A stretch of DNA of 64,000 nt from Bdellovibrionota bacterium (GTDB taxonomy: Bacteria; Bdellovibrionota_C; UBA2361; JBIKWN01), in contig JBIKWN010000001.1 in assembly GCA_044356295.1 (NCBI GenBank), forward strand, positions 61,434 to 125,433. The letters are read 5' to 3'. Made by a program: the position numbers and the translations under genes. This document shows positions 6,543-62,498 of the stretch, piece by piece. The notes under the pieces are model-generated. The model saw only the letters and a program-made list of their open reading frames with translations, searched no databases and was not told the DNA's origin. Positions within the stretch are counted from its first letter, which is position 1. Each line of letters begins with the position of its first letter.

Positions 6543-6768
6543 AATTTATTCAAAAAAATCAAACAGTTATAGTCTATTTTTGCCTTCTAAGGGAGCCGAA
6601 ATTATACACTTTTTCAGACTATCTTCACAGCTCTAAACCGTAGTAATACTGAGAAAAATTAGTAGTAATTCCTCTGTATTTTTGGGCTTTTGCAAGAGTG
6701 GGAATCTCTTTAAGGTCTGACTACTCAAGAAAGATTGCTGTAGCGGCGAACTAAATCAGTAAGAAAAT

Positions 6769-8172: not shown

Positions 8173-8207
8173 GGAGCACAAAGGAGCACTCCCCAAAAAA
8201 GCATACG

Positions 8208-8465: not shown

Positions 8466-8633
8466 GTTACACCTCGTCCTTGACGAATAGGGCTTCTTTC
8501 TGCAAAAGCACTATCCTCTTAATCCGTTTCAGCCATCCTTAGCCAATGACGAGAATCCTTTCTACAATTAATTATTTCGACTTGTAACAAAATTGTCTTA
8601 AGCTCAATCTTTCAGAAGGGCATACGAAAAATC

Positions 8634-12115: not shown

Positions 12116-12178
12116 ACTATTGAAATTACTAGGTTTAATTTGAAATTTGTTGGTCTAACAGGCGTTTGATACACTTGT

Positions 12179-13300: not shown

Positions 13301-13321
13301 TTATTCTAAAAAATAAAAACC

Positions 13322-26970: not shown

Positions 26971-28444
26971 TTTTCAAAATTCAACAAAAAAACTCTCAAG
27001 CATTGTATTAATCGCAATATTTAGTGGATGTAGTCTTATTCCTTCAGTAGGTCCTGACTATGAGCGTCCAGCTGATCCAACAGTTGCAGGCTGGATTCTA
27101 GATGAAAATGGTCAGAAGCTTTTTTCCACAAGCATGGACAGCAGAGCAGCGTGGTGGAAAAAATTTAACGATCCTGTACTTGATGACATTGTTAAAAAAG
27201 CAATTGATAAAAATCTTAATTTACAAATTGCTCAATCAAGACTTCAGCAAGCGCGTGCTGGCGAGTACGGTGCTCTGTCAGCTTTTCTTCCGACAGTTGA
27301 TGGAATATACGGTATGAATCGCCAGATTCAATCTCAAAGAACCCCCTTTGGACAGTTTATTCCTAATATTATTAACCAATATCAATTAGGTGGAGACGCT
27401 GCATGGGAGATCGATATATTTGGTGGAAACCGCAGAGGTCTTGAAGCAGCAGAAAGCATTACTGAAGCTGCCGAAGCAGGTCTTGACGATACTGGTGTCA
27501 CCATTGCATCAGAAGTTGCAAAAAACTATTTAGAGTACCGCGCATTTTCAAGAAGAGTCTTGATTGCCGAGAGCAATAAAAGAACACAGCTTAGCTCGTT
27601 AGATCTTGTTCAAGCTAAATTTGATGCAGGAGTTGTCAGTGAGCTAGACCTTCAACAACAAAAATCACAGCTTGAAACTACGTCATCATTTATTCCTGCT
27701 CTTGTCGCCGCTCGTGAACAACGTCTGTATAGAGTCGCTGTTTTGCTAGGAGAAATTCCTCAAAGTTTCTCTATCACTGATGATGCCAAAAAGAATGATC
27801 CATTTACTTTTAGAGATGTTGTATCAGTATCTCTTCCAGCTGAGTACCTTCGGGTACGCCCTGATGTTCGAGTTGCTGAACGTCAACTTGCAGCTCAAAC
27901 AGCAGAAATTGGTGTTGCGATTGCCGACATATTTCCTAAGGTAAATATTCTAGCAGGGATAGGTGTACAATCTATCGATTCAAGTAAACTAACAGAAAGA
28001 GCAAGTAAGTATTGGTCGTTTAATCCAAGCGTTTCTATTCCAATTTTTCAACCAGGAAGAATCTTTGGTGCTATTAAAAATGCCAGAGCTAAAGCTGAAG
28101 AAGCATTAAAGAATTACGAAGTAACTGTATTAACTGCACTTGAAGACGGTCAAAACTCACTCAACGGTTATAAATATGGACTTGATAGAATTAGTAATCT
28201 TGAAGGTGCATACAATGCTAGTAAACGAGCCCTAGAAATTTCGCAAGATTTGTATGCTCAGGGGCTTATTGATTTTCAACGAATTCTCGAATCACAAAGA
28301 CAGGTATTTAGTGCAGAAGATAGCCTACTTCAAGGGCAGCTCGACACCTATCTTTCGGCAATTGCTGTTTACAAAGCTTTTGCAGGCGGACTTCCAAATG
28401 AAGAAGCAGTAGATTCTGAAAAAAAACCTAACGAAAGTGTTTAA
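26963..28444 (+). CDS. Outer-membrane efflux lipoprotein (TolC/NodT family outer-membrane factor)
   Basis: Start at 'MVNFQN...IFSGCS' (lipobox). It contains the duplicated TolC-type repeat pattern. 493 aa. Confidence 0.8.
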   Translation: MVNFQNSTKKLSSIVLIAIFSGCSLIPSVGPDYERPADPTVAGWILDENGQKLFSTSMDSRAAWWKKFNDPVLDDIVKKAIDKNLNLQIAQSRLQQARAGEYGALSAFLPTVDGIYGMNRQIQSQRTPFGQFIPNIINQYQLGGDAAWEIDIFGGNRRGLEAAESITEAAEAGLDDTGVTIASEVAKNYLEYRAFSRRVLIAESNKRTQLSSLDLVQAKFDAGVVSELDLQQQKSQLETTSSFIPALVAAREQRLYRVAVLLGEIPQSFSITDDAKKNDPFTFRDVVSVSLPAEYLRVRPDVRVAERQLAAQTAEIGVAIADIFPKVNILAGIGVQSIDSSKLTERASKYWSFNPSVSIPIFQPGRIFGAIKNARAKAEEALKNYEVTVLTALEDGQNSLNGYKYGLDRISNLEGAYNASKRALEISQDLYAQGLIDFQRILESQRQVFSAEDSLLQGQLDTYLSAIAVYKAFAGGLPNEEAVDSEKKPNESV

Positions 28445-31350: not shown

Positions 31351-32307
31351 TTAAATCCGGCCAAGATAATCCGCAACCGAATCCTCAAGACTCGTAAACT
31401 CCTTCTTATACCCTGCACGCCGAAGCTTAGTCATATCAGCCTCTGTATAATCTTGATACTGACCAACAAGGCTCTGATGCATATCGATATACTGAATCGA
31501 TACCGGTTTATTTAAAACTTTAAAAGCAGCAGCAGCAAGATCGTTCCACGTTCTTGCTTTTCCAGAACCAAGATTAAAGATTCCATTTACTTTTGGTTTA
31601 TCAAGAAGCCAAAGCATGACATCAACGCAGTCTCTCACATAAATAAAATCTCGCATCTGTCCACCGTCTTGAAACTTTGGATTATTAGATTTGAAAAGTT
31701 TTATTTGTCCTGTGCCAAGGATCTGCTCATAGGCTTTTATAACCATTGAGCGCATATTTTCTTTATGAAATTCTTTTGGCCCAAAAACATTAAAAAACTT
31801 GAGCCCTACAATTTTACTTAGATGCTTATGCTTTAACGCCCATTGGTCAAAGAGGTGTTTTGAGTATCCATACATATTAAGGGGTCGCAGCGTATCAAGC
31901 TCTTTGTGCTCGTCAAGGTAGCCTTGCTCTCCCAATCCATAGGTTGCAGCACTACTTGCATAAATAAATCTTACATTAGATTTTATTGCAGCTTCGGCAA
32001 GTGAAATAGAATAGTGCACATTATTTTGCATCAAATAATCAGCATCAAGTTCAGTTGTTGCAGAGCAGGCGCCTAAGTGAAAAATTGCACCAACATCTTT
32101 TAGATAGTTTCGTTGACTGACCTTAGATAAAAAATCATTTTTATGGATAAAGTCTTCGAATGTTAAGCCTACAAGATTTTTCCATTTGGGTCCTGAACGA
32201 AGCGCATCAACAATAGTAATATTAGTAAAACCTTTTTGATTTAACCCCTCAACAAGGTTTGCACCAATAAAACCAGCTCCTCCTGTGACGATAATTCTTT
32301 TTTTCAT
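31351..32307 (-). CDS. hldD: ADP-L-glycero-D-manno-heptose-6-epimerase
   Basis: Near-collinear match to RfaD/HldD: 'IIVTGGAGFIGANLV', 'YASSAATYG', 'NVFGPKEFHK', 'NLGSGKARTW'. Confidence 0.85.
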   Translation of the reverse strand: MKKRIIVTGGAGFIGANLVEGLNQKGFTNITIVDALRSGPKWKNLVGLTFEDFIHKNDFLSKVSQRNYLKDVGAIFHLGACSATTELDADYLMQNNVHYSISLAEAAIKSNVRFIYASSAATYGLGEQGYLDEHKELDTLRPLNMYGYSKHLFDQWALKHKHLSKIVGLKFFNVFGPKEFHKENMRSMVIKAYEQILGTGQIKLFKSNNPKFQDGGQMRDFIYVRDCVDVMLWLLDKPKVNGIFNLGSGKARTWNDLAAAAFKVLNKPVSIQYIDMHQSLVGQYQDYTEADMTKLRRAGYKKEFTSLEDSVADYLGRI

Positions 32308-34289
32308 TGAGAAAGTACCCTTATCGATTTAATTGCCACTCCTAATCTTCGCTGGTCCGTAGAAAGTCCTTCACTTTCAGGACTTGAAAGTTTTGGAAGA
32401 GTAAGGAAAAAACCTTTTTCATCTTTTAGCTCTTGATACGGAAGTTTAACGACAATTTTTTCAAATTTATTAACTTCTTTTAAAGGTGGAAGGGCAACAT
32501 CGGCTAAAAAGTCTCTAAAAGAGGCAAAAAGCGGCAGATTCTCTTTCCAGGGGGTCATAAGTTCAATCTCAATAGTTGAGAATCCATTAATTCCTCCAAA
32601 GAAATGGTCATGAATAATATCTGGAATTGAGACTTTTGAAATTCTTGTTTGTAGCCAGCAATAAGGCTCACTTGCAGTTGAACATACAAATAAATCATCT
32701 TTCGCAGACAAGGGAACCTCTGAAATATCCTTACTTTCAGCCATAGCTCTTTTTTGATCGCTTGTTAAAAGATCTTTTGAGAGAGATACAACAAATAGCT
32801 TTGGATCGTGGACGATTCGAGCTCCTTTTTCTTGTGAGCCAAGAGTGAAAGAAACAGGATAATTCTTGGTAGCATCAGCAGTAGCAGTAATTAAATAATC
32901 AAATCCACGAAGCCTTGCAGCAGAAGCATCGGTAAGTGAAGGAACTTCTTCAAGCTTATTTTCAATCATACTAATCTTTGCAATTTGTAAGTCCTGTGAA
33001 ACTGCAATATTAGAAAGATGCTCTGATTTAATTTTTTCTATAACTTCAATTCTGCTCTCTGTTGAGGCATCTGCAGGACTTAAAACCCCTGAAACATACG
33101 GTGGAATAATAAATCCAATGCCAAGAATTCCAAGAAACAAGAATAAAATTTTTGAACGCTCTTGAGCCCAATGAAGTGTTATTCCAAAGAGGATGCTTAA
33201 ATAGGGAATCATCACGAGCATATTTCTAGTAAAATTTGCTTTCTGACTCGACATGAAAATCAAATAGATAATTGGAAAAACAAGAATGGTGGCTGCTGCT
33301 TTTTTATGCATTTTAAAAGAGCAAAGCACTCCGAGGGCTGCAAGTATTACGACACCCCATCCAAGCGCATTTTTAACAAACCAGTTGATAAAGAATAAGA
33401 ATTGGGAAAAGCCAGGGGTTCCTGAATTACCTTCATGTCCTGCAATTTTGTAGTGCCATATTTCGTATGCAAACTGATCAAGAAACAGAGGGAGATGTTT
33501 GAAAATAAAAGGAGACCCAATGAAGAAACTTATAATGCTCACAACGAAAGCAACTACGGCTCCGCCGATACCGATGGTGCTCGTTGAAAGAGCTGCAACG
33601 ATAGGAACTAAAATTATTGGAAGAGCATTATACTTTGTTGAAACAGTTAATCCTGCAACTATTGCTGCAATCAATAATCCTTTTGCTCCGTCTCTTGATT
33701 GAACACTAACAACGGAAAGAAGCGTCGTAAGAATCGCCAAAAATACAACAACAACATCAACACCAATGACGGCTGATTCGCTTACTAAAGCAGGAGACAG
33801 TGCACATGCAGCGCCTACAAAAAAACTAACGATAGGTGAAAGCTCTAAGGTGCGAGCAAGGATAAAGGTCAAAAGCACTGTAAGAACACTTAACAATACA
33901 GAGAAAGCCCTGTTCCATTTAACAATGCCAGGGTGGGACGCACTAAATGCATATTTCCCGACGCCATTTTCGCTTGTCGTAATAATTTCTTTTGTAGATC
34001 TTATTCTTCCCTTACTGACTTCGAATAAAAATGAAGTCGCAACAACCGGCATGCGAAGATAAAAATGGAGGGATGGTTTATGAAAGTACTCTGGGTCAAA
34101 GCTTCCGGATTTGACCATGTTTACTACTCGGTTGAAGTGGTGGGCTTCGTCCTCGTTATAAAAATAGGGGAGATCTTTTGAGATATATGGGGATCGTACC
34201 CAGGCTGCGACAAGGAGAAGTAGGAGTAGTGATATGGCTCTCATAATGTGGGTGAATAATACCGATCTCTCTCGAGCAAATATAGTCAC
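32304..34289 (-). CDS. Polytopic membrane glycosyltransferase, GT-C fold (ArnT/PMT-like, GT39/83)
   Basis: 661 aa. It has more than 10 transmembrane helices in the N-terminal half and a soluble C-terminal domain. Its start overlaps the hldD stop, so the two are probably co-transcribed. The family assignment is from architecture only. Confidence 0.5.
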   Translation of the reverse strand: MTIFARERSVLFTHIMRAISLLLLLLVAAWVRSPYISKDLPYFYNEDEAHHFNRVVNMVKSGSFDPEYFHKPSLHFYLRMPVVATSFLFEVSKGRIRSTKEIITTSENGVGKYAFSASHPGIVKWNRAFSVLLSVLTVLLTFILARTLELSPIVSFFVGAACALSPALVSESAVIGVDVVVVFLAILTTLLSVVSVQSRDGAKGLLIAAIVAGLTVSTKYNALPIILVPIVAALSTSTIGIGGAVVAFVVSIISFFIGSPFIFKHLPLFLDQFAYEIWHYKIAGHEGNSGTPGFSQFLFFINWFVKNALGWGVVILAALGVLCSFKMHKKAAATILVFPIIYLIFMSSQKANFTRNMLVMIPYLSILFGITLHWAQERSKILFLFLGILGIGFIIPPYVSGVLSPADASTESRIEVIEKIKSEHLSNIAVSQDLQIAKISMIENKLEEVPSLTDASAARLRGFDYLITATADATKNYPVSFTLGSQEKGARIVHDPKLFVVSLSKDLLTSDQKRAMAESKDISEVPLSAKDDLFVCSTASEPYCWLQTRISKVSIPDIIHDHFFGGINGFSTIEIELMTPWKENLPLFASFRDFLADVALPPLKEVNKFEKIVVKLPYQELKDEKGFFLTLPKLSSPESEGLSTDQRRLGVAIKSIRVLSQ

Positions 34290-41607: not shown

Positions 41608-43071
41608 TTGCATTATCGTATGACTTCTACTTTTTTCCCAGAATCACTAAATCCTTCTGCAGAAGTCCTCCATACTGATATTACTACTCAAAATACTTAC
41701 TCTGCTTGGAATAAAGCTCTCTCTGAGCTTAAGGTCTCTGTTAGTGGTCCTGTCTTTGATGCGTATCTTGGTGCTTTAAAGTTTGGATCTTTTGATCCGA
41801 ATAACTCAACGATAACAGTTGCAGCACCTTCTTTGCTTGTTAAAACACAGGTAGAGGAAAAATACAGAGAAGCACTTGAATCTCAGCTCCGCCAAATCAC
41901 TGAAATTACAACTCTTAGGCTCTCTCTAGAGATAGATGCAAACCCAGAAGTTATTAAGCCTCAGCCTTTTATAATTATTAAGCGTCCCGAGGAGTCTCAA
42001 AATAAATCTGGTGTAACCAACCAGCAAGCTCTTGCTTCACTTGAGCCAAACAATATTAATCCAAAATATACATTTGAAAGTTTCGTAGTAGGAAATAGCA
42101 ATCAGTTTTGCCACGCTGCTGCACTTCAAGTAGCTGAAAAGCCGGGTGTTTCATATAATCCGCTTTTTATTTACGGAGGTGTAGGACTAGGAAAAACGCA
42201 CCTTTTACACGCAATTGGAAACAAAATTTTATCTGAGCGTCCTTCTGCTAAAGTTTTGTATCTTTCAAGTGAAGCTTTCACCAATGAGCTAATCCTTGCT
42301 CTTCGTCACTCAAAAATGGACGAGTTTAAAACTAAGATGCGCGCAATTGAGGTTCTTCTGATTGATGACATTCAATTCATGGTTGGAAAAGAGCGTACCC
42401 AAGAAGAGTTCTTTCATACTTTTAATGCTCTCTACAGTGCCAGACATCAGATTGTAATCTCATCAGATAAAATTCCATCGGATATTCCTCAAATCGAAGA
42501 GCGTCTCTACACTAGATTTTCCTGGGGACTTATAGCCGACATTCAATCTCCTGATTTTGAAACAAGGGTTGCTATACTTAATAGAAAAGCCCACAACGAA
42601 AATTTTGAACTTCCTCAAGGTGTTGCTCACCTTATCGCTGATAAGGTTTCTAGTAATGTTCGTGAGCTAGAAGGAGCTCTTACAAGACTTCATGCAGTTA
42701 GCTCTCTTCAAAAAATCGAGATCTCAGAAGATCTTGCTGTTAATTGTTTGAAACATCTTTTTGCTCCAAAAAAAGTAAATATATCTGTTGATGATATTAA
42801 AAAAGCTGTTGGAGTTCATTTCTCTCTGAAAGTCTCTGAGATCATCTCAAAGCGTCGTACAAAAAATCTTTCTTTCCCCAGGCATATTGCAATGTATCTT
42901 TGCAGGAAACATACTACGTGCTCTTATCCTGAGATTGGTTCTCACTTTGGAGGGCGTGATCATTCCAGTGTGATTCATGCAGCAAGTGTTGTAAGTGCTA
43001 AACTGAAAAGTGACCCAGAGGTAAGAAAACAGGTTGGTGAGATTGAGAAAGCTCTTTTAAATACAAATTAA
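41608..43071 (+). CDS. dnaA: Chromosomal replication initiator protein DnaA
   Basis: AAA+ Walker A 'GGVGLGKTHLLHAIG', 'LLIDDIQF', and the C-terminal DNA-binding domain 'HSSVIHA'. It is followed by dnaN, recF and gyrB. Confidence 0.95.
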   Translation: MHYRMTSTFFPESLNPSAEVLHTDITTQNTYSAWNKALSELKVSVSGPVFDAYLGALKFGSFDPNNSTITVAAPSLLVKTQVEEKYREALESQLRQITEITTLRLSLEIDANPEVIKPQPFIIIKRPEESQNKSGVTNQQALASLEPNNINPKYTFESFVVGNSNQFCHAAALQVAEKPGVSYNPLFIYGGVGLGKTHLLHAIGNKILSERPSAKVLYLSSEAFTNELILALRHSKMDEFKTKMRAIEVLLIDDIQFMVGKERTQEEFFHTFNALYSARHQIVISSDKIPSDIPQIEERLYTRFSWGLIADIQSPDFETRVAILNRKAHNENFELPQGVAHLIADKVSSNVRELEGALTRLHAVSSLQKIEISEDLAVNCLKHLFAPKKVNISVDDIKKAVGVHFSLKVSEIISKRRTKNLSFPRHIAMYLCRKHTTCSYPEIGSHFGGRDHSSVIHAASVVSAKLKSDPEVRKQVGEIEKALLNTN

Positions 43072-43445: not shown

Positions 43446-44609
43446 ATGAAGTTCACTCTCAGTAACACTGATCTTTTCAAAGCATTAAATCTAATCGGAA
43501 ATATTGTTGAAAAAAAAGCAACAATGCCTATTTTGGCAAACGTTTTAATTTCTGCAGAAGAAGGCAAAGTTTTCTTTTCAGGATCAGAGCTTGATATCAC
43601 TGCGCAAACTCAAGTTCCTGCAAAAGTAAAACAAAGAGGAAGTACAACAGTAAACGCAAAGATGTTCTTAGAGGTCGTACGTGAGCTTCCAGAAGGAGAT
43701 GTTGAGCTTACCCTAACACCAGGTGAGAGATTAGAAATAAAAGCAAGGAATTCGAATTTGACGCTCGTAGGGGTAAGTGCACAAGAGTACCCAAGTCTTG
43801 CAGGATTAAGTTTAACTCCGAAGGATTCAATATCATCATCTGTTCTACTAGAAATGATTGAATCAACCCTCTATGCAGTTTCAACAGATGAGACAAGATT
43901 TAACTTAGGAGGAGTTTGTTTTGAATCAGTTCAAACAGGAGACACAGTTTCAGGTCCAAAAATTGTTAGAGGAAAAAAAGATTCTAAAACAAGTACGCTC
44001 CGACTTGTTTCAACTGATGGCCACCGACTTGCATTAATTACTCGAGAAGTAGAGGGACTATCTTTTTCAGGAAGAGTAATAGCACCAAGAAAAGGACTAC
44101 AAGAACTTAAAAAAGTTCTCGAGGATAACAAAGATACAAATATTCTATTCGGAATATCAGAAGGATTTCTTGTTGTAGAATCTCCAACATCAAAACTTAC
44201 CATGCGCCTCATTGACGGAGAATTTCCAGATTACACTCGAGCACTTCCAGAAAAAGAAGGAACAAGAATTACTGTTGATTCTAAAGAACTATCGTCAGCT
44301 TTAAGAAGAGTTGCCCTCTTAGTTTCAGATAAACAAAAATGTGTAAAATTTGATATTCAAAAAGATATGCTTCACATGTCTAGCTCTTCACCTGAGTTAG
44401 GAGAAGCGTTTGTATCACTTCCAATAGAACATAAAGGAAACCCTTTTGTCGTCGGTTTTGATTCAAGATTTATCCGTGATATTAGCGATAATATTGGGGA
44501 ATCTAAGGGTTTTGTTATGGAACTAAATGGAGAAACAGGCCCTGGAAAATTCTATGTGCAAGGTGATGAATCTTCTTTTGGCGTTGTAATGCCAATGAGA
44601 ATTGTTTAG
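43446..44609 (+). CDS. dnaN: DNA polymerase III beta sliding clamp
   Basis: 'MKFTLSNTDLFKALNLIGNIVEKKATMPILANVLI', 387 aa. Confidence 0.95.
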   Translation: MKFTLSNTDLFKALNLIGNIVEKKATMPILANVLISAEEGKVFFSGSELDITAQTQVPAKVKQRGSTTVNAKMFLEVVRELPEGDVELTLTPGERLEIKARNSNLTLVGVSAQEYPSLAGLSLTPKDSISSSVLLEMIESTLYAVSTDETRFNLGGVCFESVQTGDTVSGPKIVRGKKDSKTSTLRLVSTDGHRLALITREVEGLSFSGRVIAPRKGLQELKKVLEDNKDTNILFGISEGFLVVESPTSKLTMRLIDGEFPDYTRALPEKEGTRITVDSKELSSALRRVALLVSDKQKCVKFDIQKDMLHMSSSSPELGEAFVSLPIEHKGNPFVVGFDSRFIRDISDNIGESKGFVMELNGETGPGKFYVQGDESSFGVVMPMRIV

Positions 44610-44626: not shown

Positions 44627-45712
44627 GTGATTCTTTCAGAAATTTCACTTTTTCAATTTAGAAACTCTTGTGACTCCTCTGTTCAATTTTCACCGAAGCT
44701 AAATATCGTTGTTGGAAAAAACGGACAGGGAAAAACAAACCTTGTTGAAGCAATTCACCTTCTATCTACTTCAAAATCGTTTCGCACTTCTCGAACAAGA
44801 GAATTAATTGCGTGGGGACAAAAAGAAGCATCTGTTTTTGGAAACCTCATTACGAGAGCAGGAGATATTCGACTTGGAGTCATACTTTCTTCCGCTTCTA
44901 AAATGTTAATGATTAATGGCACAGCTGAAAAAGCAACTCAATTCATTAGTACTTTTGTAAGCATTACATTTAGCCCTGCAGATATTGAAATCATTAAAGG
45001 TGAAGCAGCAGTTAGAAGACAGTTTTTAGATAAACATTTAGCAGATATTTTTCCTCAATCAATACCGAACCTTTTAAACTATGTAAGAGCTCAAAAAAAT
45101 AAAGTGGCGCTTCTTAAAAGCGGAGCAACTCCCGAAAGTATTCGTCCATGGAACGAGATAATGGCTGTTCATGGATTTGAGATAGATAACTATCGCCGGA
45201 AAGTAATCAGTGAACTTTCAAACAGAGCAGCAATTCATCACCAAAAATTTGCTCATGCAGATGGAGAACTCACCTTAACATTAGAAAGAAAAAGTGATGG
45301 ACTGTTCGAAAAGGTTGACGATTTTAGAGAGCTTTTTGAAAAAAATATTGAAAAAGAAATTTCCAGCGAGCGCTCCTTAGTGGGACCTCACCGTGATGAT
45401 ATTGAATTTTTATATAATGGAATCTCTGCAAGAAAATTTGGCTCCCAAGGACAATCAAAATCAATAGCGATTGCGCTTAAACTTGGACTTATCGATTTAA
45501 TAAATGAACATCGAAAAGAACCACCGGTGGTCATTCTTGATGATGTTGACTCTGAGCTTGATGAGAATCGGCTTGAAAAACTCTATCAACTTCTCTTAAG
45601 CGGAGAGTATCAAGTTTTTATTACTGGAACCTCTGAAAATAGGGCTTTGGAGGCTGCCCCAGAGAGCTGCAAACGATTTCAGATTGATCAAGGAAAAATT
45701 ACTGAAAAATAG
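44627..45712 (+). CDS. recF: DNA replication/repair protein RecF
   Basis: Walker A 'GKNGQGKTNLVEAI', SMC-like signature, 361 aa. Confidence 0.9.
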   Translation: MILSEISLFQFRNSCDSSVQFSPKLNIVVGKNGQGKTNLVEAIHLLSTSKSFRTSRTRELIAWGQKEASVFGNLITRAGDIRLGVILSSASKMLMINGTAEKATQFISTFVSITFSPADIEIIKGEAAVRRQFLDKHLADIFPQSIPNLLNYVRAQKNKVALLKSGATPESIRPWNEIMAVHGFEIDNYRRKVISELSNRAAIHHQKFAHADGELTLTLERKSDGLFEKVDDFRELFEKNIEKEISSERSLVGPHRDDIEFLYNGISARKFGSQGQSKSIAIALKLGLIDLINEHRKEPPVVILDDVDSELDENRLEKLYQLLLSGEYQVFITGTSENRALEAAPESCKRFQIDQGKITEK

Positions 45713-45801: not shown

Positions 45802-48270
<2,469 letters not shown>

Positions 48271-52809: not shown

Positions 52810-54960
52810 TTAATAAATACTTTTACAATCGGTCAGGATGTTGTCTTCACTTGAAGAAGATTTAAGTTTAATAGTAACAAATGGAACTGTCTTCAAAGCT
52901 TTAGGAAGGGTGAATAGCACACCGTTATCTTTAACTACTGTTGGTATATTTTCTAAGGTATGAGCCAGTATTGCACTTATTGAAGAATCTGGTTGAAGTG
53001 GGCTAGCAAAATTACAAGTCACCATTTTTACATTTGATTGCACAATGAGTGAGCTTAATTCAGAGTTGGAAATCTTTATACGAGGATGAAAGCTAAATTG
53101 AAAACTTCCATCCTCAAGCTCGACTTTATTAGTTAGAAAATCTTTGTAGAGATTAAGATTATCAGTTGAAAAAAGTTTGGAGTTCGATGAATAACTTGAG
53201 GTTACTAGGATGGTGTTAAGATCAATTATCTCAGAAAGAGTCCTTAAGGACTTTTCGTCAGGAAAGCTTGAAAGCTTTTGAGGCAGCTCTTTTACAAGAC
53301 GAGTTTTTATTCCTGTAAACCCATTTATACTTTTTAAGTTATTTTCAACAGACCAAAGTAAGAATTGATTCTGCATTGTCGCAAAATTAAAGAAGCTTTT
53401 AATTCCACCATCTTCTGATTGAGTGTCTCCATATGGAATTAATACTCCAAGAGCACTACTTTTGGATTGATTGGAAGAGATATTTCTTGCCGAGAGAATA
53501 TTTGAGCTCGGCTCAAATGGAAAAACGGCTGAAATATTTTCTAAAAAAATAAAACAACAACAAAGGCAGCAGATTAAAATTTTCTCTCTCTTAGCTTGGA
53601 AAATTGCAAGCCAATAAAATGCAATAAGTGAAAAGAGGTATATAGAAACAATACCAGCTCTGCTAATCGCTCTAAATCCCGAAAAACCAGGTATAAAATT
53701 ATATAAGAAATAGTATGGTGAATAAGAAGCAATATCAGGACGGCTGATAGGTCCAAATGAAATAGCCATAAAAATAAAGGCGAGGGAAGAAAATAATAAA
53801 ATAAGTTCTTGATTTGAAATAATAGTTATTTGGTCAGTTTTTTTTACTATTTTAACTACTACCAATCCCAATAAAATAAGCGAAATCAACGTTAGCCAGG
53901 AAAGAGTAGAATTAAGAATCCAATAAAAATCAGGAATCAGTGTACTTGCTATAAAGAGCGATAGAAAAACAGTAAAAATATATTTGTATTTAATAATTTT
54001 TTTGTGAGTTGCAGAGCAGTAAAAAGAAATCAGCGCTAGTAAAGGAATGAAAATTCCAGTGCCAAGACTTGCCTCAGAGTGTGAAAGATTAAATATTTTT
54101 GAGTAGAGAAAATTAAAAGATCCAAAAGATAAAAAAGATGCAATTGTTGCTTGAAAAGCGTGAGGTTCCCAATACCCGCGGTCTCCAAATGCTTTCAGTA
54201 CATCTAGATAAGGTAATAAAAACGGAAGGGAAGGGGATAGTCCAAAAAGAAAAGTTACTACAAATCGAGAAATGAAAATTACCTTATTATCTGAATGAAA
54301 TCGGACTGCCCACCAAAGAGACATCAGAACAAAAAGTATCCCTGAAAAAAATGTAAGGTAGATTGAACATAAAAAACTACAAAATAGAGATATCCCAATT
54401 AGAAATGGATAAAGAAGTCGTTCTTCCGACACCCACTTTAAAAATAGATAGATAACCAGCGGAACAATCCAAACATGGAGCATTTGAGGATGTCCAAAAT
54501 GAGCCTGTATTGGAGCAAGTTGTGGTGTAAGAATTCCAAAAAAAATACTTAAATAAAAATTTTCAGTAAGACTGTAGAGCAGTAAAAAAGAAAAAAAACC
54601 AAGTAGCAGAAGAGCCACAATAAAAATAATATTCCAACAAAGAATTTTCCCTATTCCTATATTTTTTAAAAGAAAAAATGCAAAAGATGGAAGTATCCAA
54701 TTATCTGAGAAGGCAAGACTTTGGGAGTATGGAAAGAATCCATTTGTTTCAAACCAAGTGCTTGGCGTAACTTGGTATGGAAACAGATTACAAAGCCAAA
54801 TATAAATAGATGTATCTCCACCACTGCCTCCAAGATAATGAGTGGAACTTTGAATAATAATAGACGGGCTAAGTATTAGAAAGGCAACGAGAATACAGAA
54901 GAGAGCTACAGATTTCTGTCTAACTGTTAGTTGAGCAAGGGTGAGAACTGAAGCTTTCAT
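52810..54960 (-). CDS. Large polytopic membrane protein with a soluble C-terminal domain (YfhO/GT-C-like architecture)
   Basis: 716 aa. It has more than 12 hydrophobic helices across its first 470 residues or so, followed by a domain of about 240 aa. Its start overlaps the 3' end of the double-UvrA gene by 41 nt. Confidence 0.45.
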   Translation of the reverse strand: MKASVLTLAQLTVRQKSVALFCILVAFLILSPSIIIQSSTHYLGGSGGDTSIYIWLCNLFPYQVTPSTWFETNGFFPYSQSLAFSDNWILPSFAFFLLKNIGIGKILCWNIIFIVALLLLGFFSFLLLYSLTENFYLSIFFGILTPQLAPIQAHFGHPQMLHVWIVPLVIYLFLKWVSEERLLYPFLIGISLFCSFLCSIYLTFFSGILFVLMSLWWAVRFHSDNKVIFISRFVVTFLFGLSPSLPFLLPYLDVLKAFGDRGYWEPHAFQATIASFLSFGSFNFLYSKIFNLSHSEASLGTGIFIPLLALISFYCSATHKKIIKYKYIFTVFLSLFIASTLIPDFYWILNSTLSWLTLISLILLGLVVVKIVKKTDQITIISNQELILLFSSLAFIFMAISFGPISRPDIASYSPYYFLYNFIPGFSGFRAISRAGIVSIYLFSLIAFYWLAIFQAKREKILICCLCCCFIFLENISAVFPFEPSSNILSARNISSNQSKSSALGVLIPYGDTQSEDGGIKSFFNFATMQNQFLLWSVENNLKSINGFTGIKTRLVKELPQKLSSFPDEKSLRTLSEIIDLNTILVTSSYSSNSKLFSTDNLNLYKDFLTNKVELEDGSFQFSFHPRIKISNSELSSLIVQSNVKMVTCNFASPLQPDSSISAILAHTLENIPTVVKDNGVLFTLPKALKTVPFVTIKLKSSSSEDNILTDCKSIY

Positions 54961-57900
54961 TGCCCTCTGAGTGTAGAGTCTTTGCGTTTTTCAGCAAAGA
55001 GCCCCAAGGGGTTTTGCCTTGAGCTGTTTTAAAAGGTGTTCCAGCAGAGATTACGTTTCCACCGTTTTGCCCAGCTCCGGGACCCATTTCTAGGAAAAAA
55101 TCAGCTGCAGCAATCATATCCATGTCATGTTCTATTACAAAGACTGACGATCCTCTTTCAACAAGTGCTCTTAGAGAATTAATCAATCTAAAAACGTCAC
55201 TTCGGTGAAGTCCAAGAGTCGGTTCATCAAGAATATAGAGAACATGACCTCGAGGATTGCCACTGAGTTCTGAAACAATTTTTAGTCTCTGGGCTTCTCC
55301 TCCAGAGAGCGTCACGGAAGATTGTCCAAGAGTAAGATAGCCAAGTCCTAAGTCGCATGCGATTTTTAAACTCTGATGTATTTTTTTATGATTTGAAAAC
55401 TTACTTTTTGCTTCTTCAAAGGTAAGGCTTAGTACTTCACTAATCGTAAGACCGCCGTATCTAACGATTTGAATATCACTTCCATACCTTGTTCCGCTGC
55501 AGCTTTCGCATTCAACTTTTGCATCAGCAAGAAAATTCATTTCAAGTGTAATAACACCCGCACCTTTACATTCAGAGCATCGTCCTTTTCCAGCATTATA
55601 AGAGAAATGACCCTGATTCCACCCTTGGGCTCTTGCTTCAAGCGTGCTTGCAAACACTTTTCGTATTTCATCCCATACACCTAGATATGAAGCTGGAGTT
55701 GAGCGAGAAGTTGAGCCAATTGGTTTTTGATCAAGATAAACAATTTTATCGATATTTTCATCAAATGTTATCTCTCCACGTTCCGAAGATATCGTATTTT
55801 TTTTATTTTTCCCTTCTCGAAGAGTGTAGTTAATAATTTCATGTATGAGGGTACTTTTTCCTGAGCCCGAAACTCCACCAATCGTTACAAGCTGCTTTAG
55901 GGGAAGTGTCGTAGAAAGATTTTTAATTGTATGACAGTTAGCATTTTTTACCTTTAACTCAGGCGTTTTTTTCTTTACAACTTCGGCAATTTGCAGTGGG
56001 AGTGCTAAGGCAGCACCAGTTGGCGTTGTCCTATCAGTGTATGAAGTGACAGGCCCTTGAAAAACAATTTCACCTCCGTGAATTCCAGCCATGGGACCAA
56101 TATCAATTATATGATCTGCTGACTTAATTGATTCGATGTCATGCTCAATTAAAATAACAGCATTATTGTTGTAGTTAAGAGTCCTTAATTTTTTTAGAAC
56201 CAATCTGTTATCAAGTGGATGTAGTCCAGCACTCGGCTCGTCAAAAATATACATTACTCCTGAAAGAGGAGATCCCATTGCGGTTGCTAATCGAAGGCGT
56301 TGTAATTCCCCACCAGAAAGTGTTCTGCAACTTCTAGAGAGCGAAATATAATCTAAACCTAGCTCACACAGAGACAATAACTTTGAGCGGAGTTCAATTA
56401 TTACTGGTTCAGCAAGGGCTTGGTTCATTTTAGTAAGCGTCTGTGAGATCTTATCTAAAAATACAAGAAGTTCTCGAGGAGTTAAGCTTGAGCTCTCAAA
56501 GATATTTTTTCCGAATATACGTATATTTCTTCCAATAGCTTGTATGCGGGCTCCCTGACAACTTGTACATACAACTTGTTTTTCATCATGACCAAATCCG
56601 TCACATTCAGCACACCGGCCTCGCTTGGAATTAAATGAAAGATCTTCTGGGTCTACTTTAAAAAATCCAGTTTCACAGACGGGACATGCTCTTTTTGAAC
56701 TTAATATCTCTTCTTTGCCAGAATCAGAGAGAATAATAATGGAACCACCACCTAAGGTTAAAGCTGTTTCTATAGTTTCAACGAGAACTTCTTTGTTAAT
56801 AGTTTTTGGATTAAATTTTGCAATGACAAAATCAATAGAATGAACTTTTGATTTTGTTAGTCCTTCTGCAAAATGAGATGTCTTTCCAAGCACTGAATCA
56901 ACACGTACTTCAAGAATCTCTGATTCGATAGCTCGAATAAATACCGCTTGATGACTTCCTTTTTTCTTAATGATGACAGGGGATAGAAGTCGAATCGTTG
57001 CATCTTTTCGATTCATAATTTTTGTTGCAATTTCTTGAGCAGAAAGAGGTGCTATCTCTTGATCCGGATGGTCGGGACAGTACTGTGTTCCAGTTTTTGC
57101 ATAAAGAAGTCTTAAGAAGTTATATACTTCTGACATCGTTGCCACGGTAGATAGAGCAGATGGTTGAAACGTATGCTGATAGACACAAATAGTAGGTCGT
57201 ACATTACGAATTGAATCAATATCAGGTTTTTTAAGCTCTTTAATAAATTGTCTTGCGTATGGAGACAAACAATCAAGGTACCTGCGTTGTCCTTCAGCAA
57301 AGATTATATCTTTTGCTAACGTTGATTTTCCAGAACCGGATACTCCTGTGATGGCTACAACTTTATCGACCGGAATAGAGACTGATATATTTTTAAGATT
57401 ATGCTCCCTGGCTCCTTTGATCTCTAGCTCAGATGTTTTTGTTACATCAGTAGTTTTCTGAGGATTTTTAGCTTTTGCACGAATTGTGTTTCCACAAGAA
57501 GAGATATAGGTGGAAAGGTGGTTTGCTGTTTCGTTTTTCTTTTCTTTTAGAAGCTCGGGGAGTGTTCCTTGAAAAAGCAGATGTCCCCCTTCTTCTCCTC
57601 CTTCAGGACCTAGATCAATAATCCAATCGGCATTTTGAATGACTGAAAGATTGTGTTCAATACACAGCACTGAGTTTCCACGAGAAATAAGTTCTCTGAG
57701 TAGTCGAATAAAATTTTCAACATCATGGACATGAAGCCCAGAGGTGGGTTCGTCAAAAATAAATAGATAATGTTTTGATGAGTTCTCGGATAGATATGGA
57801 ACAAGTTTTAAACGCTGGGCTTCGCCTCCACTTAATTCACTAAGAGGATGTCCTAAACGACACGCACCTAATCCAAGTTTTTGCAGAACTAAAAGTGTCG

Positions 57901-60268
57901 CTGATACTGATTTATTATTAAGTTGTGTGAAAAAAGTATATGCATCATCGACAGACATCGAAAGATATTCGTCAACGTTTTTTCCTTTATAAAAAATGTT
58001 AAGAACTGAAGGTTGGAATCTCTTTCCGAGGCATGATTCACAAGGAACATAGACATCACTTAAAAACTGCATGTCCTCTCTAATAAAGCCGGCTCCTTCA
58101 CAGCTGGTACACCGTCCAGCGTTAACATTAAAGCTAAAACTAGATTTGCTAAATCCTAGTGCCTGGGCTTCTTCGGTGCTTGCAAGGAGGTCTCGAATGA
58201 CGTCCCAAATTTTTGTGTATGTAGCAATATTGGCACGAGGCGTTTTTGCAAGTGGACTTTGATCCACAAAGATAAGCTCATCAATTTTTGAAAATCCTGC
58301 ACTCTTTTCGAAACCAAAAGCTGAGTCAATGATACCTTTATGGAGCTTCCATGCATTTAAGATTACTTCATGAGCAAGGGTGCTTTTCCCGGAACCACTA
58401 ACTCCCGTTAAGCAGGTGAGGGTCTTTAGAGGGATTTGAACATTACATGATTTTAAGTTTCGGGCCGAAGCTTTAAAAATAGAGATTGAATCATTTAGAT
58501 TAACTTTTTCAGTAGCGTTGATTCGTTTTGCTATCTGAACACCTTTCCATTTGGAAGCAGGGCCATTAAAAATAACATCACCACCAAATGTTCCAGCCTT
58601 TGGACCAATCTCAATAATATGATCAGCTTCAGTAATCACATCCGGATCATGCTCTACGACTAAAAGAGAATTTCCCTTTTGAGTCAGATTTTTCATGGCT
58701 CTTGTCAATCTTTCAGAATCTCTTGCATGAAGCCCAATTGAAGGTTCATCAAGTACAAATTGAGTTGAAGTAAGCTCACTTCCAAGGGCAGTTGCTAAGT
58801 TAACACGTTGGGTTTCTCCACCAGAAAGGGTTTTTGCTTGTCTGTCCAACGTAAGATACGGCAGACCAAGGTTTTCAAGATACTGAAGCCTGCCAACGAG
58901 ATTTTCAAAAGGACTTTGTAAAGCTTGATAAAGTGCTTTATTTTTTTTTGCTTCAATTTGAAGCTCTTTAATCCAAGATAGAAGTCTTCCAATCGGAAGG
59001 GACCAGATTTCGCCGATATGTTTATTATTCACTCGAAATGCCAAAGCCTGAGCTTTTAGTCTTGAGCCACTGCAAGATGAGCAAACTTTTTGCTCTCGGT
59101 ACCGAGATAAGAAAACTCGTACATGCATCTTATAAGTTTTTTTCTCAAGCCATTGGAACCAATGATCTACCCCCCAAAAGTCTTTCTCTTTGGTTTCAAA
59201 AATTTTTCTTTTTTGAATGTCGGATAAGTTTTTCCACGGAATATCTGTGGCAATCCCTTCACGTTTAGCAAAAGTAAGTAGGCTTTTAAATTCCCATTCA
59301 GCTGATGGTCCTGACCAACAAGCTATAGCATGTTCTTCGAGTGTTTTTGAAACATCAGGAACTACTTTTGATTCAGAGATTGATAGAGTAAATCCAAATC
59401 CTTTACAAAGTTCGCATGCACCAATTGGATGGTTAAAAGAAAAAAGTGCTGTTTTAGGTACTTCAGCAGTGAAGTCATGTTTCTCGCACCGAAATGATTT
59501 CGAGAATATTTTTTTTATAAAAGGCTTATCCTTTTCTGATTGTAAAAGAAGTGTTACTTCGTTTGGGTTTAATGAAAAACCCGCATCAAGAGATGTCTTT
59601 AACCGTGAAATTTGAACAGCGCCTGAAATGCGATCAAGGATAACTGTTATAGTGCTGATATTCTTAAAATCTTTTTTACTAATCTCGCTAAGCTGTATAA
59701 CAAGGCCTGTATGAGGGTGAAGTATTCGGGAATATCCTAATGTTTTTAATCTATCTATTTCAAAATCAATAAATTTTTTGTTGCAGTGAACTTCAGCTGC
59801 GATAAGTATAGAAAAATTATCTTTAATAAGATCTTGGATTTGTGCTGCTATAGTAGCGCTATTCCAACGCACTAACCCTTCATCACAAACAGGGCAATGA
59901 GGAATAGCAAGAGATCCCCAAATTACTTTCAAATAATCATTACTATTAGTAAGTGAACCAACAGTTGATCTGGCGCTGGTAATTCTCGTTCTTTGCTGAA
60001 TAGAAATCGCAGGGCGAACATTTTCTAACTTTTCAACAAGTGGCTTTTTTACCTTATCAAAAAATTGTCGTGTATACGGTGAAAAAGTTTCAATATATCT
60101 GCGTTGACCTTCAGCATAGACCGTATCAAAGGCGAGTGATGATTTACCGGATCCAGACAGACCAGTAATCACTGTTAATTCGTCATGAGGAATCTCAAGA
60201 GAGATGTTCTTTAAGTTATTCTCTTGAGCACCAATAATTTTTAGAGATTCTTTGTGCTTACCATTCAT
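54920..60268 (-). CDS. Tandem-fused double UvrA-like protein (two complete UvrA modules, four ABC ATPase domains)
   Basis: 1782 aa, uninterrupted. Each half contains a UvrA N-terminal NBD ('GLSGSGKSSLAFDTVYAEGQRRY' and 'GVSGSGKSTLAKDIIFAEGQRRY'), Zn-finger Cys pairs, a UvrB-binding/insertion-like segment, and a second NBD with LSGGE signature and Walker B (four 'DEP(S/T)xGLH' motifs in total). The halves are clearly divergent, so this is not an assembly duplication. Confidence 0.85.
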   Translation of the reverse strand: MNGKHKESLKIIGAQENNLKNISLEIPHDELTVITGLSGSGKSSLAFDTVYAEGQRRYIETFSPYTRQFFDKVKKPLVEKLENVRPAISIQQRTRITSARSTVGSLTNSNDYLKVIWGSLAIPHCPVCDEGLVRWNSATIAAQIQDLIKDNFSILIAAEVHCNKKFIDFEIDRLKTLGYSRILHPHTGLVIQLSEISKKDFKNISTITVILDRISGAVQISRLKTSLDAGFSLNPNEVTLLLQSEKDKPFIKKIFSKSFRCEKHDFTAEVPKTALFSFNHPIGACELCKGFGFTLSISESKVVPDVSKTLEEHAIACWSGPSAEWEFKSLLTFAKREGIATDIPWKNLSDIQKRKIFETKEKDFWGVDHWFQWLEKKTYKMHVRVFLSRYREQKVCSSCSGSRLKAQALAFRVNNKHIGEIWSLPIGRLLSWIKELQIEAKKNKALYQALQSPFENLVGRLQYLENLGLPYLTLDRQAKTLSGGETQRVNLATALGSELTSTQFVLDEPSIGLHARDSERLTRAMKNLTQKGNSLLVVEHDPDVITEADHIIEIGPKAGTFGGDVIFNGPASKWKGVQIAKRINATEKVNLNDSISIFKASARNLKSCNVQIPLKTLTCLTGVSGSGKSTLAHEVILNAWKLHKGIIDSAFGFEKSAGFSKIDELIFVDQSPLAKTPRANIATYTKIWDVIRDLLASTEEAQALGFSKSSFSFNVNAGRCTSCEGAGFIREDMQFLSDVYVPCESCLGKRFQPSVLNIFYKGKNVDEYLSMSVDDAYTFFTQLNNKSVSATLLVLQKLGLGACRLGHPLSELSGGEAQRLKLVPYLSENSSKHYLFIFDEPTSGLHVHDVENFIRLLRELISRGNSVLCIEHNLSVIQNADWIIDLGPEGGEEGGHLLFQGTLPELLKEKKNETANHLSTYISSCGNTIRAKAKNPQKTTDVTKTSELEIKGAREHNLKNISVSIPVDKVVAITGVSGSGKSTLAKDIIFAEGQRRYLDCLSPYARQFIKELKKPDIDSIRNVRPTICVYQHTFQPSALSTVATMSEVYNFLRLLYAKTGTQYCPDHPDQEIAPLSAQEIATKIMNRKDATIRLLSPVIIKKKGSHQAVFIRAIESEILEVRVDSVLGKTSHFAEGLTKSKVHSIDFVIAKFNPKTINKEVLVETIETALTLGGGSIIILSDSGKEEILSSKRACPVCETGFFKVDPEDLSFNSKRGRCAECDGFGHDEKQVVCTSCQGARIQAIGRNIRIFGKNIFESSSLTPRELLVFLDKISQTLTKMNQALAEPVIIELRSKLLSLCELGLDYISLSRSCRTLSGGELQRLRLATAMGSPLSGVMYIFDEPSAGLHPLDNRLVLKKLRTLNYNNNAVILIEHDIESIKSADHIIDIGPMAGIHGGEIVFQGPVTSYTDRTTPTGAALALPLQIAEVVKKKTPELKVKNANCHTIKNLSTTLPLKQLVTIGGVSGSGKSTLIHEIINYTLREGKNKKNTISSERGEITFDENIDKIVYLDQKPIGSTSRSTPASYLGVWDEIRKVFASTLEARAQGWNQGHFSYNAGKGRCSECKGAGVITLEMNFLADAKVECESCSGTRYGSDIQIVRYGGLTISEVLSLTFEEAKSKFSNHKKIHQSLKIACDLGLGYLTLGQSSVTLSGGEAQRLKIVSELSGNPRGHVLYILDEPTLGLHRSDVFRLINSLRALVERGSSVFVIEHDMDMIAAADFFLEMGPGAGQNGGNVISAGTPFKTAQGKTPWGSLLKNAKTLHSEGNESFSSHPCSTNS

Positions 60269-61657
60269 TTATTTGCCCATCATACCACGGAATGCTGATT
60301 CTAGCGTGGGAGATGTAAATGCAAAATTAGATTCAAGAAGTTTTTTTGGAATTATTCTTTGAGAAGAAAGAATTGTTTCATCAGCCATTTGACCAAAGAC
60401 AAGCCTTAGAAACAAAGGTGGAACAGGGAAAAGGCAAGGACGCCTCAGTACCGTTGAGAGAGTTCTGCTGAACTCTAAATTGGTTGTTGCTTTTGGCAAA
60501 CAGAAATTGAAAGCACCACTTACTTCTTGGCTAGCAGCTAAATGATACAGTCCATAGATGACATCATCTTTTGAAATACAGCTCATGAAGCGTTGCCCTT
60601 TTCCGATTGGGCCACCAATACCTAATTGGAAGGGAAGAAGAAGTTTTTTTAAAGCACCACCATCAGGCGAAAGAATTATTCCAAATCTTGCATGGCAAAC
60701 CCGAATACCGATTTTATTAAGGGGCGTTGAAGCCTCTTCCCATTGTCTTACTACGTCGGCCAGAAAACCTTCTCCTTGCGGAGAGCTCTCATCAACTTCA
60801 ATTTTTGTGTCAGTTCCATAAAAACCAGAACCAGACGCCGAAATAAAAGTTTTAGGTTTGTTTTTTAACTTCGAAATGCATTCCACTAAAAAAGAAGTTG
60901 TTTCAACTCGAGAACGTAGGATCGTATCTTTCACTAAAGTACTCCACCGTTTTGCAACAGATTCTCCAGAAAGATGGATAATATGATCAAAGCCCTCTAA
61001 CGAATCAGGACTTATGATTTTTTTATAAGGATTCCATGGAATTCTTTTAACAGCATCGGGGATACCTTCATCATTTCCTCGAGAAAGGATAGAGACCGAA
61101 TGTCCAGCAGTTAACAGAAATGCAACAAGACTCTTGCCGAGAAACCCACTTGCACCTGATATCAGAAAATTTTGTTGCGTTTGAAAACTTCCCTTGTATT
61201 TTTCAATAACAGAAAGATCTTGTAGGGTTATGTGGTGTCGGTATTTAAAAAGCCTTTCTAATTTTTTTCTAAAAATCCAACCAAACAATGGTTCTGACAA
61301 TATTGGAAATGGCAGTGAAAACGATAACTCATCTTTAAGAATAGAAGTATGTGAGCTTACTCCTTCAAAGACATGTTGATGCTTCCAAGATTTAAAAGGA
61401 CCGTTAACTTGATGGTCTTCGAATTTTTTATTTTCTATATATCCTTTATGGGTAAGATTCCAACGAATTCCGATTTTTCCGAAAACTGGAACCTTAATGA
61501 CGACTGTTGCTCCGTCTCGAATGCCCCCTGAGTGAGAAACTAATTCAACTGGCTCAAAAGGGGGATTTAGTCTGAGAAACGCACCAGGACGCTCATGCCA
61601 AGCAAAAAGATCTTCAACTGGAATAGGAAATTCTTTTTGAAAGGTAAGTGTAATCAA
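60269..61657 (-). CDS. SRPBCC-domain and TIGR01777/YfcH-type NAD-dependent epimerase (SDR39U1) fusion protein
   Basis: An N-terminal START/SRPBCC-like domain of about 145 aa, then a Rossmann 'ISGASGFLGKSLV' domain and a C-terminal DUF1731-like 'ILSSQRIIPKKLLESNFAF'. Its stop directly abuts the double-UvrA start codon. Confidence 0.65.
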   Translation of the reverse strand: MITLTFQKEFPIPVEDLFAWHERPGAFLRLNPPFEPVELVSHSGGIRDGATVVIKVPVFGKIGIRWNLTHKGYIENKKFEDHQVNGPFKSWKHQHVFEGVSSHTSILKDELSFSLPFPILSEPLFGWIFRKKLERLFKYRHHITLQDLSVIEKYKGSFQTQQNFLISGASGFLGKSLVAFLLTAGHSVSILSRGNDEGIPDAVKRIPWNPYKKIISPDSLEGFDHIIHLSGESVAKRWSTLVKDTILRSRVETTSFLVECISKLKNKPKTFISASGSGFYGTDTKIEVDESSPQGEGFLADVVRQWEEASTPLNKIGIRVCHARFGIILSPDGGALKKLLLPFQLGIGGPIGKGQRFMSCISKDDVIYGLYHLAASQEVSGAFNFCLPKATTNLEFSRTLSTVLRRPCLFPVPPLFLRLVFGQMADETILSSQRIIPKKLLESNFAFTSPTLESAFRGMMGK

Positions 61658-62085
61658 CCAAAGACCTCTTTGGCGACAGTAGCTGCAAGCTTTCCATCAT
61701 ACTGACCATTATGTGAATCTTTTAAGCTCTTCATAGCTCCACCTTGATTGATAGTAGCGTCATTTGCTTTCAGTGAAGCAAAGAAAGAGCTTAACTCTTC
61801 TTTTGTCATTTGTTTTGGAAGAAACGATTCAAGAACAGAGATCTCAATAAGAAGTTTTTCTAAAAGTTCTGGTCTGTTTCCCTTCTCTGCAAATTCAATC
61901 TCTTCCTTTCTTTTTTTTAGCTCTCGTTGAAGAATTGCCATAACATCAGTAATGCTTGCATCGGATATTCCTTTTTGCATTTCATCATACTGAATTTCAC
62001 TTAAGACCCCTCGAATTGTTGAAAGCTTAACAGCATCCTTTGCTTTCATTGCTTCTTTCATTTCGGTTTTTAATCTTTCTTTCAT
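61654..62085 (-). CDS. yqeY: GatB/YqeY-domain protein
   Basis: 'MKERLKTEMKEAMKAKDAVKLSTIRGVLSEIQ' is the typical YqeY N-terminus. 143 aa. It overlaps the downstream gene by 4 nt. Confidence 0.7.
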   Translation of the reverse strand: MKERLKTEMKEAMKAKDAVKLSTIRGVLSEIQYDEMQKGISDASITDVMAILQRELKKRKEEIEFAEKGNRPELLEKLLIEISVLESFLPKQMTKEELSSFFASLKANDATINQGGAMKSLKDSHNGQYDGKLAATVAKEVFG

Positions 62086-62090
62086 ACGAC

Positions 62091-62498
62091 CTATATTTTT
62101 TTGAATTCTTTTAAAAATTTTTCTAATTTAGCAGTGGTTTCGGCGCTTACAAGATGTTCAATCTTACATGCATCAATCTCGGCTTGACCTGGGCTCACAC
62201 GAAGTACCTTTTCAAAAAATTCTTTTACTAACTCGTTTCTGACCACAATTGCTTTTGCAAGCCGCTCGCCTTCGGATGATAAGATCAGAAATTTATTATC
62301 ATCTTCAACAATAAATCCTTTTTGTTTCAAACTTTTGAGGTTTGTAGAAGCACTACCAGTTGTGATGTTTAACTCTTTAGCAACGTCAGTAACTCGGGCA
62401 TAGCCACGCTTTGCACGAAGATCCATTATGGCTAATAGATGATGAGCAGCACTGTGTGTGATGTCGTTTTCTTCAAATTGCTTCCAAACGTCTTCCAT
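62091..62498 (-). CDS. DtxR/MntR-family metal-dependent transcriptional regulator
   Basis: Winged-helix region 'GYARVTDVAKELNITTGSASTNLKSLKQKGFIVED' with a dimerisation helix. 135 aa. It is the first gene of the five-gene same-strand cluster. Confidence 0.6.
   Translation of the reverse strand: MEDVWKQFEENDITHSAAHHLLAIMDLRAKRGYARVTDVAKELNITTGSASTNLKSLKQKGFIVEDDNKFLILSSEGERLAKAIVVRNELVKEFFEKVLRVSPGQAEIDACKIEHLVSAETTAKLEKFLKEFKKI

Follow-up and report, generated by a model that had tools for sequence, protein, structure and literature searches.

The subject of this work is a tandem uvrA gene found in a stretch of 64,000 nucleotides from a Bdellovibrionota bacterium (assembly GCA_044356295.1, contig JBIKWN010000001.1, positions 61,434 to 125,433); this whole stretch is referred to as the window. 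The gene encodes one polypeptide of 1782 amino acids (aa) in which two UvrA units, here called modules A and B, follow each other. Both units have kept their ATPase sites and a UvrB-binding domain, while only the first has an insertion domain. Judged from sequence comparison, the protein belongs to a large and old family, and it probably serves as the damage sensor of nucleotide excision repair (NER) in the form of an intramolecular, obligately asymmetric single-chain pseudo-dimer. The gene and the domain anatomy of the protein are certain, and are made up of the following features:

54920..60268, minus strand: the tandem (double) uvrA open reading frame (ORF), 1782 aa and a stop codon, with no internal stops.
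57503..60268, minus strand: module A, residues 1-922, a complete class-I-type UvrA unit.
59477..59896, minus strand: UvrB-binding domain of module A, with the zinc module 1 ligands C125, C128, C261, and H264.
59084..59404, minus strand: insertion domain of module A, residues 289-395, the sole insertion domain of the protein (Pfam UvrA_DNA-bind, 47 bits).
57422..57502, minus strand: inter-module linker, residues 923-949 (27 aa, basic), rich in K, R, S, A, P, and T and without Met.
54923..57421, minus strand: module B, residues 950-1782, a UvrA unit with a UvrB-binding domain and no insertion domain.
56675..57079, minus strand: UvrB-binding domain of module B, with the zinc module 1 ligands C1064, H1067, C1195, and C1198 (Pfam UvrA_inter, 51.5 bits).
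56558..56614, minus strand: site of the insertion-domain deletion in module B, with the zinc module 2 pairs C1219/C1222 and C1234/C1237.

The ORF at 54920-60268 is the longest in its part of the window. The whole protein matches the NCBIfam models TIGR00630 (excinuclease ABC subunit UvrA) with 1715 bits and PRK00349 (NF001503) with 1754 bits, in three stretches, the latter score being the sum over two units. When the halves are scored separately after a split at residue 946/947, each of them alone passes the curated TIGR00630 cutoff of 729.8 bits (870.5 bits for module A and 848.7 bits for module B), and each matches solved class I UvrA structures with E-values of about 1e-200. The two modules are 33-38% identical to each other by BLASTP, and 39% over the core columns. 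This low identity means that they are old, diverged copies, in agreement with a first-pass annotation of this DNA, which had ruled out a collapsed assembly repeat. The overall layout is a UvrB-binding domain and an insertion domain in the first unit, the linker, and a UvrB-binding domain without an insertion domain in the second.

That annotation had further proposed a true fusion into a single polypeptide, with the reservation that a stop codon or frameshift at the junction might have been missed. The ORF is uninterrupted, and a search covering about 5.8 billion protein clusters retrieved at least 120 clusters of 1726-1924 aa that are 50-77% identical to the query and cover 97-100% of it. Where the sources give a name for these, it is excinuclease ABC subunit A. 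The full-length protein is also encoded in about 45 genomes in a scan with one genome per species, nearly all of them metagenome-assembled genomes (MAGs) of Bdellovibrionota, 'Deltaproteobacteria', or Oligoflexia, with a Lake Mendota Bdellovibrionota MAG as the best match (77% identical). The sequences displaying the fusion come from NCBI, JGI, ENA, and Logan assemblies. Conservation within the family was assessed in an alignment of the query and 120 close homologues, and the 121 sequences are the basis of all conservation values given below. In this alignment the linker is 18-46 aa long (median 29) and has a conservation of 0.22; it thus differs both in sequence and in length among the homologues, yet it is in frame throughout. 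Met is missing from the linker region in 110 of the 121 sequences, which leaves module B without a conserved start codon. The conserved fusion and the in-frame, Met-poor linker together rule out a missed stop or frameshift, and the reservation is also refuted by the number of independent database proteins, more than 160, in which the fusion is unbroken.

Module A consists of a first nucleotide-binding domain, which carries the UvrB-binding domain and the insertion domain, and a second nucleotide-binding domain with zinc module 3. Residues 5-912 of Tma UvrA (3PIH) as well as Bst UvrA (2R6F) align with it from end to end, including the UvrB-binding and insertion domains. The UvrB-binding domain scores 21.4 bits against Pfam UvrA_inter, slightly under the cutoff of 23.3, and is recognised with 51 bits by a generic hidden Markov model (HMM) of this domain that was trained on single UvrAs together with tandem proteins in which both units are complete. 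It is the least conserved folded part of the protein, with a mean column conservation of 0.45 and a length that varies between 126 and 212 aa. Three Cys ligands of its zinc module 1 are kept in the family, and the fourth ligand is variable, being His in the protein described here. The insertion domain has a conservation of 0.65 and is flanked by the zinc module 2 Cys pairs C285/C288 and C396/C399, which are invariant.

When it comes to module B, the alignment with Bst 2R6F (tagged numbering) covers 25-302 and then resumes at 423-945. Only 11 residues separate the Cys pairs of zinc module 2, compared to 107 in module A. By hmmalign occupancy module B has 124 residues in the region of the UvrB-binding domain and 11 in that of the insertion domain, where module A again has 107, and over the 121 sequences the latter region is 108-110 aa long in module A and 12-21 aa in module B. 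Likewise, Pfam UvrA_DNA-bind is matched in half A only, while UvrA_inter is matched in both halves. With its insertion domain gone, module B alone is not a complete class I unit. The first-pass annotation had described two complete modules, each with a UvrB-binding/insertion-type segment; this is correct for module A and for the UvrB-binding domain of both, whereas Pfam, the 2R6F alignment, and hmmalign agree that there is no insertion domain in module B. That one insertion domain is consistently lost seems not to have been reported before.

The UvrB-binding domain of module B is of fixed length in the family, with a conservation of 0.63 and four invariant zinc module 1 ligands. With the generic HMM the median score is 53 bits for module A segments and 74 bits for module B segments, and the module B segment scores higher in 147 of 165 proteins. 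By these scores both UvrB-docking domains survive, and that of module B is nearer to the consensus.

A motif scan located four Walker A motifs (residues 36, 622, 975, and 1465), four LSGGE signatures (residues 481, 812, 1317, and 1654), four Walker B DEP motifs, and four H-loops. Each unit therefore has two ABC ATPase domains with intact Walker A, signature, Walker B, and H-loop, as class I UvrAs do. The four sets are 96-100% conserved, a few single motif positions excepted. All four Walker A, LSGGE, and Walker B sets reported in the first-pass annotation are thus intact and near-invariant, and the degeneration of the ATPase motifs in one half, which would have spoken against its proposal, is not seen. 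Its Zn-finger Cys pairs are borne out as well: ligands of zinc modules 1, 2, and 3 are found in both halves, zinc modules 2 and 3 being invariant in A as well as in B. The core domains display conservation values of 0.65-0.86 that are about equal between the modules, indicating that both are under constraint.

Canonical class I UvrA is the damage sensor of NER and a homodimer of chains of about 940 aa, as in E. coli, 2R6F, 3PIH, and M. tuberculosis 3ZQJ. It shares the two-ABC-ATPase core, the three zinc modules, and the UvrB-binding domain with each of the modules, but the insertion domain with module A only, and canonical UvrAs are about 37-42% identical to the tandem protein. Unlike in the canonical proteins, the units are here fused by a linker of 18-46 aa, they are only about 39% identical to each other, and the second has no insertion domain. 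Compared to the canonical homodimer the particle would hence be obligately asymmetric. The UvrA dimer is arranged head to head, with four nucleotide-binding domains and one DNA groove (PMC5128194), and damage-specific DNA binding involves the insertion domain (PMC10192343). Class II proteins are defined by the loss of the UvrB-binding domain and zinc module 1 (PMC9328131, PMC10192343, PMC5128194), and they act independently of UvrB (PMC9328131, PMC10192343). The class II proteins D. radiodurans UvrA2 (2VF7), DrrC, and Ecm16 (7SH1) have the ABC-ATPase core and zinc modules 2 and 3 in common with the tandem protein, but lack the UvrB-binding domain and the zinc module 1 that both modules have. 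Nor is the tandem gene seen in or near a biosynthetic cluster for a DNA-binding drug, as would be expected of resistance-type proteins such as DrrC and Ecm16; its neighbours are housekeeping genes.

The spread of tandem UvrAs was assessed by an exhaustive HMMER search with query residues 583-1782 against 1.84 billion representatives at 50% identity, of which the best 150 were classified. Nearly all of these are 1200-2343 aa long, the longest being P0126 and P0142 (2334-2343 aa). The proteins were split into units, and each architecture was called with hmmalign, by how far the columns for the UvrB-binding and insertion domains in a canonical UvrA model were occupied, as narrow domain HMMs made from this family alone were too insensitive. 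In the codes U and u denote the presence and absence of the UvrB-binding domain, and I and i those of the insertion domain. At least five tandem architectures recur among the best 150 representatives:

UI-Ui, the type of the protein described here: 44 representatives, besides the 120 close homologues from the cluster search.
UI-UI, both units complete: 42 representatives.
uI-uI, two class-II-like units: 23 representatives.
UI-uI: 6 representatives.
Ui-UI, the insertion domain missing in the first unit: 5 representatives, two of them named Planctomycetota (P0186 and P0195).
uI-UI: 5 representatives.
Rarer tandem architectures: a few.

Named UI-Ui representatives come from Planctomycetota, Fibrobacterales, and Polyangiaceae/Myxococcales, besides Bdellovibrionota. 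An identity ranking puts only first modules nearest to module A and, if a few truncated database entries are set aside, only second modules nearest to module B. In a neighbour-joining tree, which is only rough beyond the nearest clades, module A falls within a clade of 58 first modules from UI-Ui, UI-UI, and UI-ui proteins. Group-mean identities between the module classes all lie at 0.35-0.49 and are uninformative. Since the nearest relatives correspond module for module, the fusion is older than the family. Which module has lost which domain varies between the architectures, and this suggests repeated, independent loss, or subfunctionalisation, after fusion.

Fusion of two units is also what the protein described here has in common with tandem class II forms, for which the name 'class III' has reportedly been used. 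The pattern is the opposite in a Delongbacteria tandem of 1537 aa (L052), which has two UvrA_DNA-bind matches and no UvrA_inter. The UI-UI and Ui-UI tandems are likewise fusions of two class-I-type units, and differ in the module or domain that has been lost. A Bellilinea (Chloroflexota) MAG (L055) encodes a class I uvrA of 967 aa at 6139-9042 and a class-II-like uvrA of 843 aa, lacking the UvrB-binding domain, at 10792-13323; they are on the same strand with one opposite-strand gene between them, and appear to correspond to the mixed tandem forms in an unfused state.

Double-length UvrAs are mentioned in reviews and known from Chlamydia genomes. They are already numerous in public databases, where they are routinely annotated as UvrA, and one NCBIfam model exists; no paper analysing them came up in full-text searches of the open-access literature. 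This model, NF001885/PRK00635 ('excinuclease ABC subunit A', an equivalog of 1809 positions), which we take to represent the Chlamydia-type UvrA of about 1786 aa, likewise describes two UvrA units in about 1800 aa, and its positions 7-935 are collinear with module A. However, the tandem protein scores 1039.8 bits against a cutoff of 3054, which places it outside the equivalog, and the best alignment of module B alone is to the first half of the model (positions 396-913), so that there is no clear half-for-half orthology. On these scores and alignments the tandem protein represents a separate lineage with the same general design. No curated model covers the UI-Ui architecture, and the call 'excinuclease ABC subunit A' is correct.

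A working model can be formulated from this anatomy. Modules A and B would fold back on each other via the flexible, basic linker, and one chain would in this way form the head-to-head 'dimer' that canonical UvrA makes from two, with one DNA groove and four ATPase sites. The particle would be the NER damage sensor of the cell and pass lesions on to UvrB. Its asymmetry would lie in module A giving the sole insertion domain, that is, the damage-specific DNA contact, and in module B giving the better-conserved UvrB-docking domain, while the full set of four ATPase sites and the two C-terminal zinc fingers are retained. The intramolecular pairing, the role in NER, and the interaction with UvrB are predictions, and the model is held with somewhat more confidence than doubt. 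The first-pass annotation had suggested a covalently linked pseudo-dimer of the NER sensor, and this reading agrees with all the findings, namely the TIGR00630 match of both modules, the four conserved ATPase sites, the two UvrB-binding domains, the flexible linker, and the housekeeping context. A stronger version, in which the tandem protein would be the only UvrA of these bacteria, obligately asymmetric, having a single insertion domain and a single principal module for UvrB docking, is put forward tentatively and has the lesser chance of being right.

Several observations weigh against the model. The window ORFs that were scanned, among them every ORF of 600 aa or more, gave no second uvrA, no uvrB, and no uvrC, and of these it is the lack of a uvrB that counts against the model. 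The Bdellovibrio-type LexA box TTACN3GTAA has two matches in the window, which is not above chance, and as neither is near the operon, a link to the damage response is not seen. In homodimeric Ecm16, deletion of the insertion domain abolishes DNA binding (PMC10192343). Finally, when scored alone against PRK00349, module A obtains 902 and module B 855 bits where the equivalog cutoff for one UvrA unit is 1147, so both modules are diverged.

This divergence would also suit an accessory paralogue, with a canonical uvrA of about 940 aa taking care of general NER and the tandem protein handling special lesions or a DNA-binding toxin, in analogy to UvrA2, DrrC, and Ecm16. Extra UvrA paralogues of unclear role are indeed widespread in bacteria (PMC9328131), and tandems of class II exist, both as the Delongbacteria protein and as the 23 uI-uI representatives. 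Nevertheless, the UvrB-binding domain and zinc module 1 are kept in both modules, unlike in the resistance-type class II proteins (PMC10192343), the gene and its synteny are conserved over many species-level genomes of the clade as for a core function, and the neighbours are housekeeping genes close to dnaA, with no biosynthetic or resistance cluster seen among them. The two domains and the housekeeping context near dnaA make an NER sensor likelier than a drug-resistance paralogue, and the alternative offered in the first-pass annotation, a DrrC- or UvrA2-like resistance factor, is disfavoured for the same reasons. An accessory role of this kind is accordingly regarded as rather unlikely.

The pairing could also take place between chains instead of within one, two polypeptides associating as A:A' and B:B' or in a swapped manner, which would give eight ATPase sites or linked sensors that bridge two DNA segments. 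Canonical UvrA dimerises by an isologous interface, of which each module may still have one, and a linker of 18-46 aa is long enough for the modules to act independently. Symmetric pairing does, however, poorly explain the complementary loss, where module B is without an insertion domain in 121 of 121 sequences and in 147 of 165 proteins it is module A that has the weaker UvrB-binding domain. A B:B' pair would be left without any insertion domain, and Ecm16 in that state does not bind DNA (PMC10192343), which disfavours assembly between chains; the high local concentration within a fused chain would in addition be expected to favour intramolecular pairing. Inter-chain assembly is for these reasons considered improbable. 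An artefact, in which two neighbouring uvrA genes were joined by a sequencing or assembly error at about 57.42-57.50 kb, can be dismissed, as the same unbroken fusion occurs in at least 120 close clusters, 44 more representatives, and about 45 species-level genomes, with a linker that varies yet always stays in frame and with no start codon for module B.

In canonical UvrA the protomers are identical, and the roles of the proximal and distal ATP sites, of the two insertion domains, and of the two UvrB docks are therefore genetically inseparable. A fused and diverged pseudo-dimer would mean that evolution has already done part of this separation: it has kept four ATPase sites and both UvrB-binding domains, and dropped one insertion domain. 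The loss is consistent over the 121 close relatives, the 44 more distant representatives, and four phyla as judged by protein names (Bdellovibrionota, Myxococcota, Planctomycetota, and Fibrobacterota). The tandem design is widespread and seems not to have been studied by experiment. This consistent asymmetry may make the family a useful and apparently unexploited model for damage recognition in NER. If the protein should turn out to be a sole, asymmetric UvrA, the particle would need one insertion domain only and perhaps load one UvrB. It would then offer, as a natural scaffold, the chance to mutate the four ATPase sites and the two 'protomers' one by one, which is impossible in a homodimer, and it would bear on the long-running questions of UvrA-UvrB stoichiometry and of the division of labour between ATP sites.

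The window represents the neighbourhood of the chromosomal replication origin, and dnaA lies about 12 kb from the tandem uvrA. The genes around the latter include glmU, panE, icd, a gene for a membrane protein of 716 aa, and three upstream genes on the same strand, and the window also contains alaS as an ORF of 953 aa. The features concerned are:

62091-62498, minus strand: MntR-like regulator.
61654-62085, minus strand: YqeY-like protein.
60269-61657, minus strand: YfcH-like epimerase-family protein (TIGR01777, DUF1731).
52810-54960, minus strand: ORF of 716 aa, sharing 41 nucleotides with the 3' end of the tandem uvrA.
41608-43071: dnaA.
45814-48270: gyrB.
2550-5006: gyrA.

The MntR-like, YqeY-like, and YfcH-like genes are probably co-transcribed, and the TAA stop of the YfcH-like gene directly abuts the ATG of uvrA. 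This order of upstream genes recurs in 14-18 related loci. The best promoter-like site is found at 62553-62525, in a scan that overall was not enriched over shuffled sequences. At its N-terminus the YfcH-like protein has an extra segment of about 160 aa with a weak polyketide-cyclase/SRPBCC match. The 716-aa ORF, judged by eye to encode a polytopic membrane protein, has no Pfam or NCBIfam match, and up to 18 related loci have a homologue with 23-49% identity in this downstream position. It was considered as a partner of uvrA and rejected, since it is a polytopic membrane protein without a family match and probably unrelated to repair.

The ORFs at 43446-44609 and 44627-45712, between dnaA and gyrB, are in the positions usual for dnaN and recF. 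Three ORFs elsewhere in the window have no NCBIfam match at E<=1e-20, namely 32304-34289 (minus strand, 661 aa), 6769-8172 (plus strand, 467 aa), and 10718-12115 (plus strand, 465 aa). The window also encodes RND multidrug-efflux components, namely a permease of 1023 aa at 13322-16393, within the region 12179-17780, and an outer-membrane factor of the NodT family at 26921-28444.

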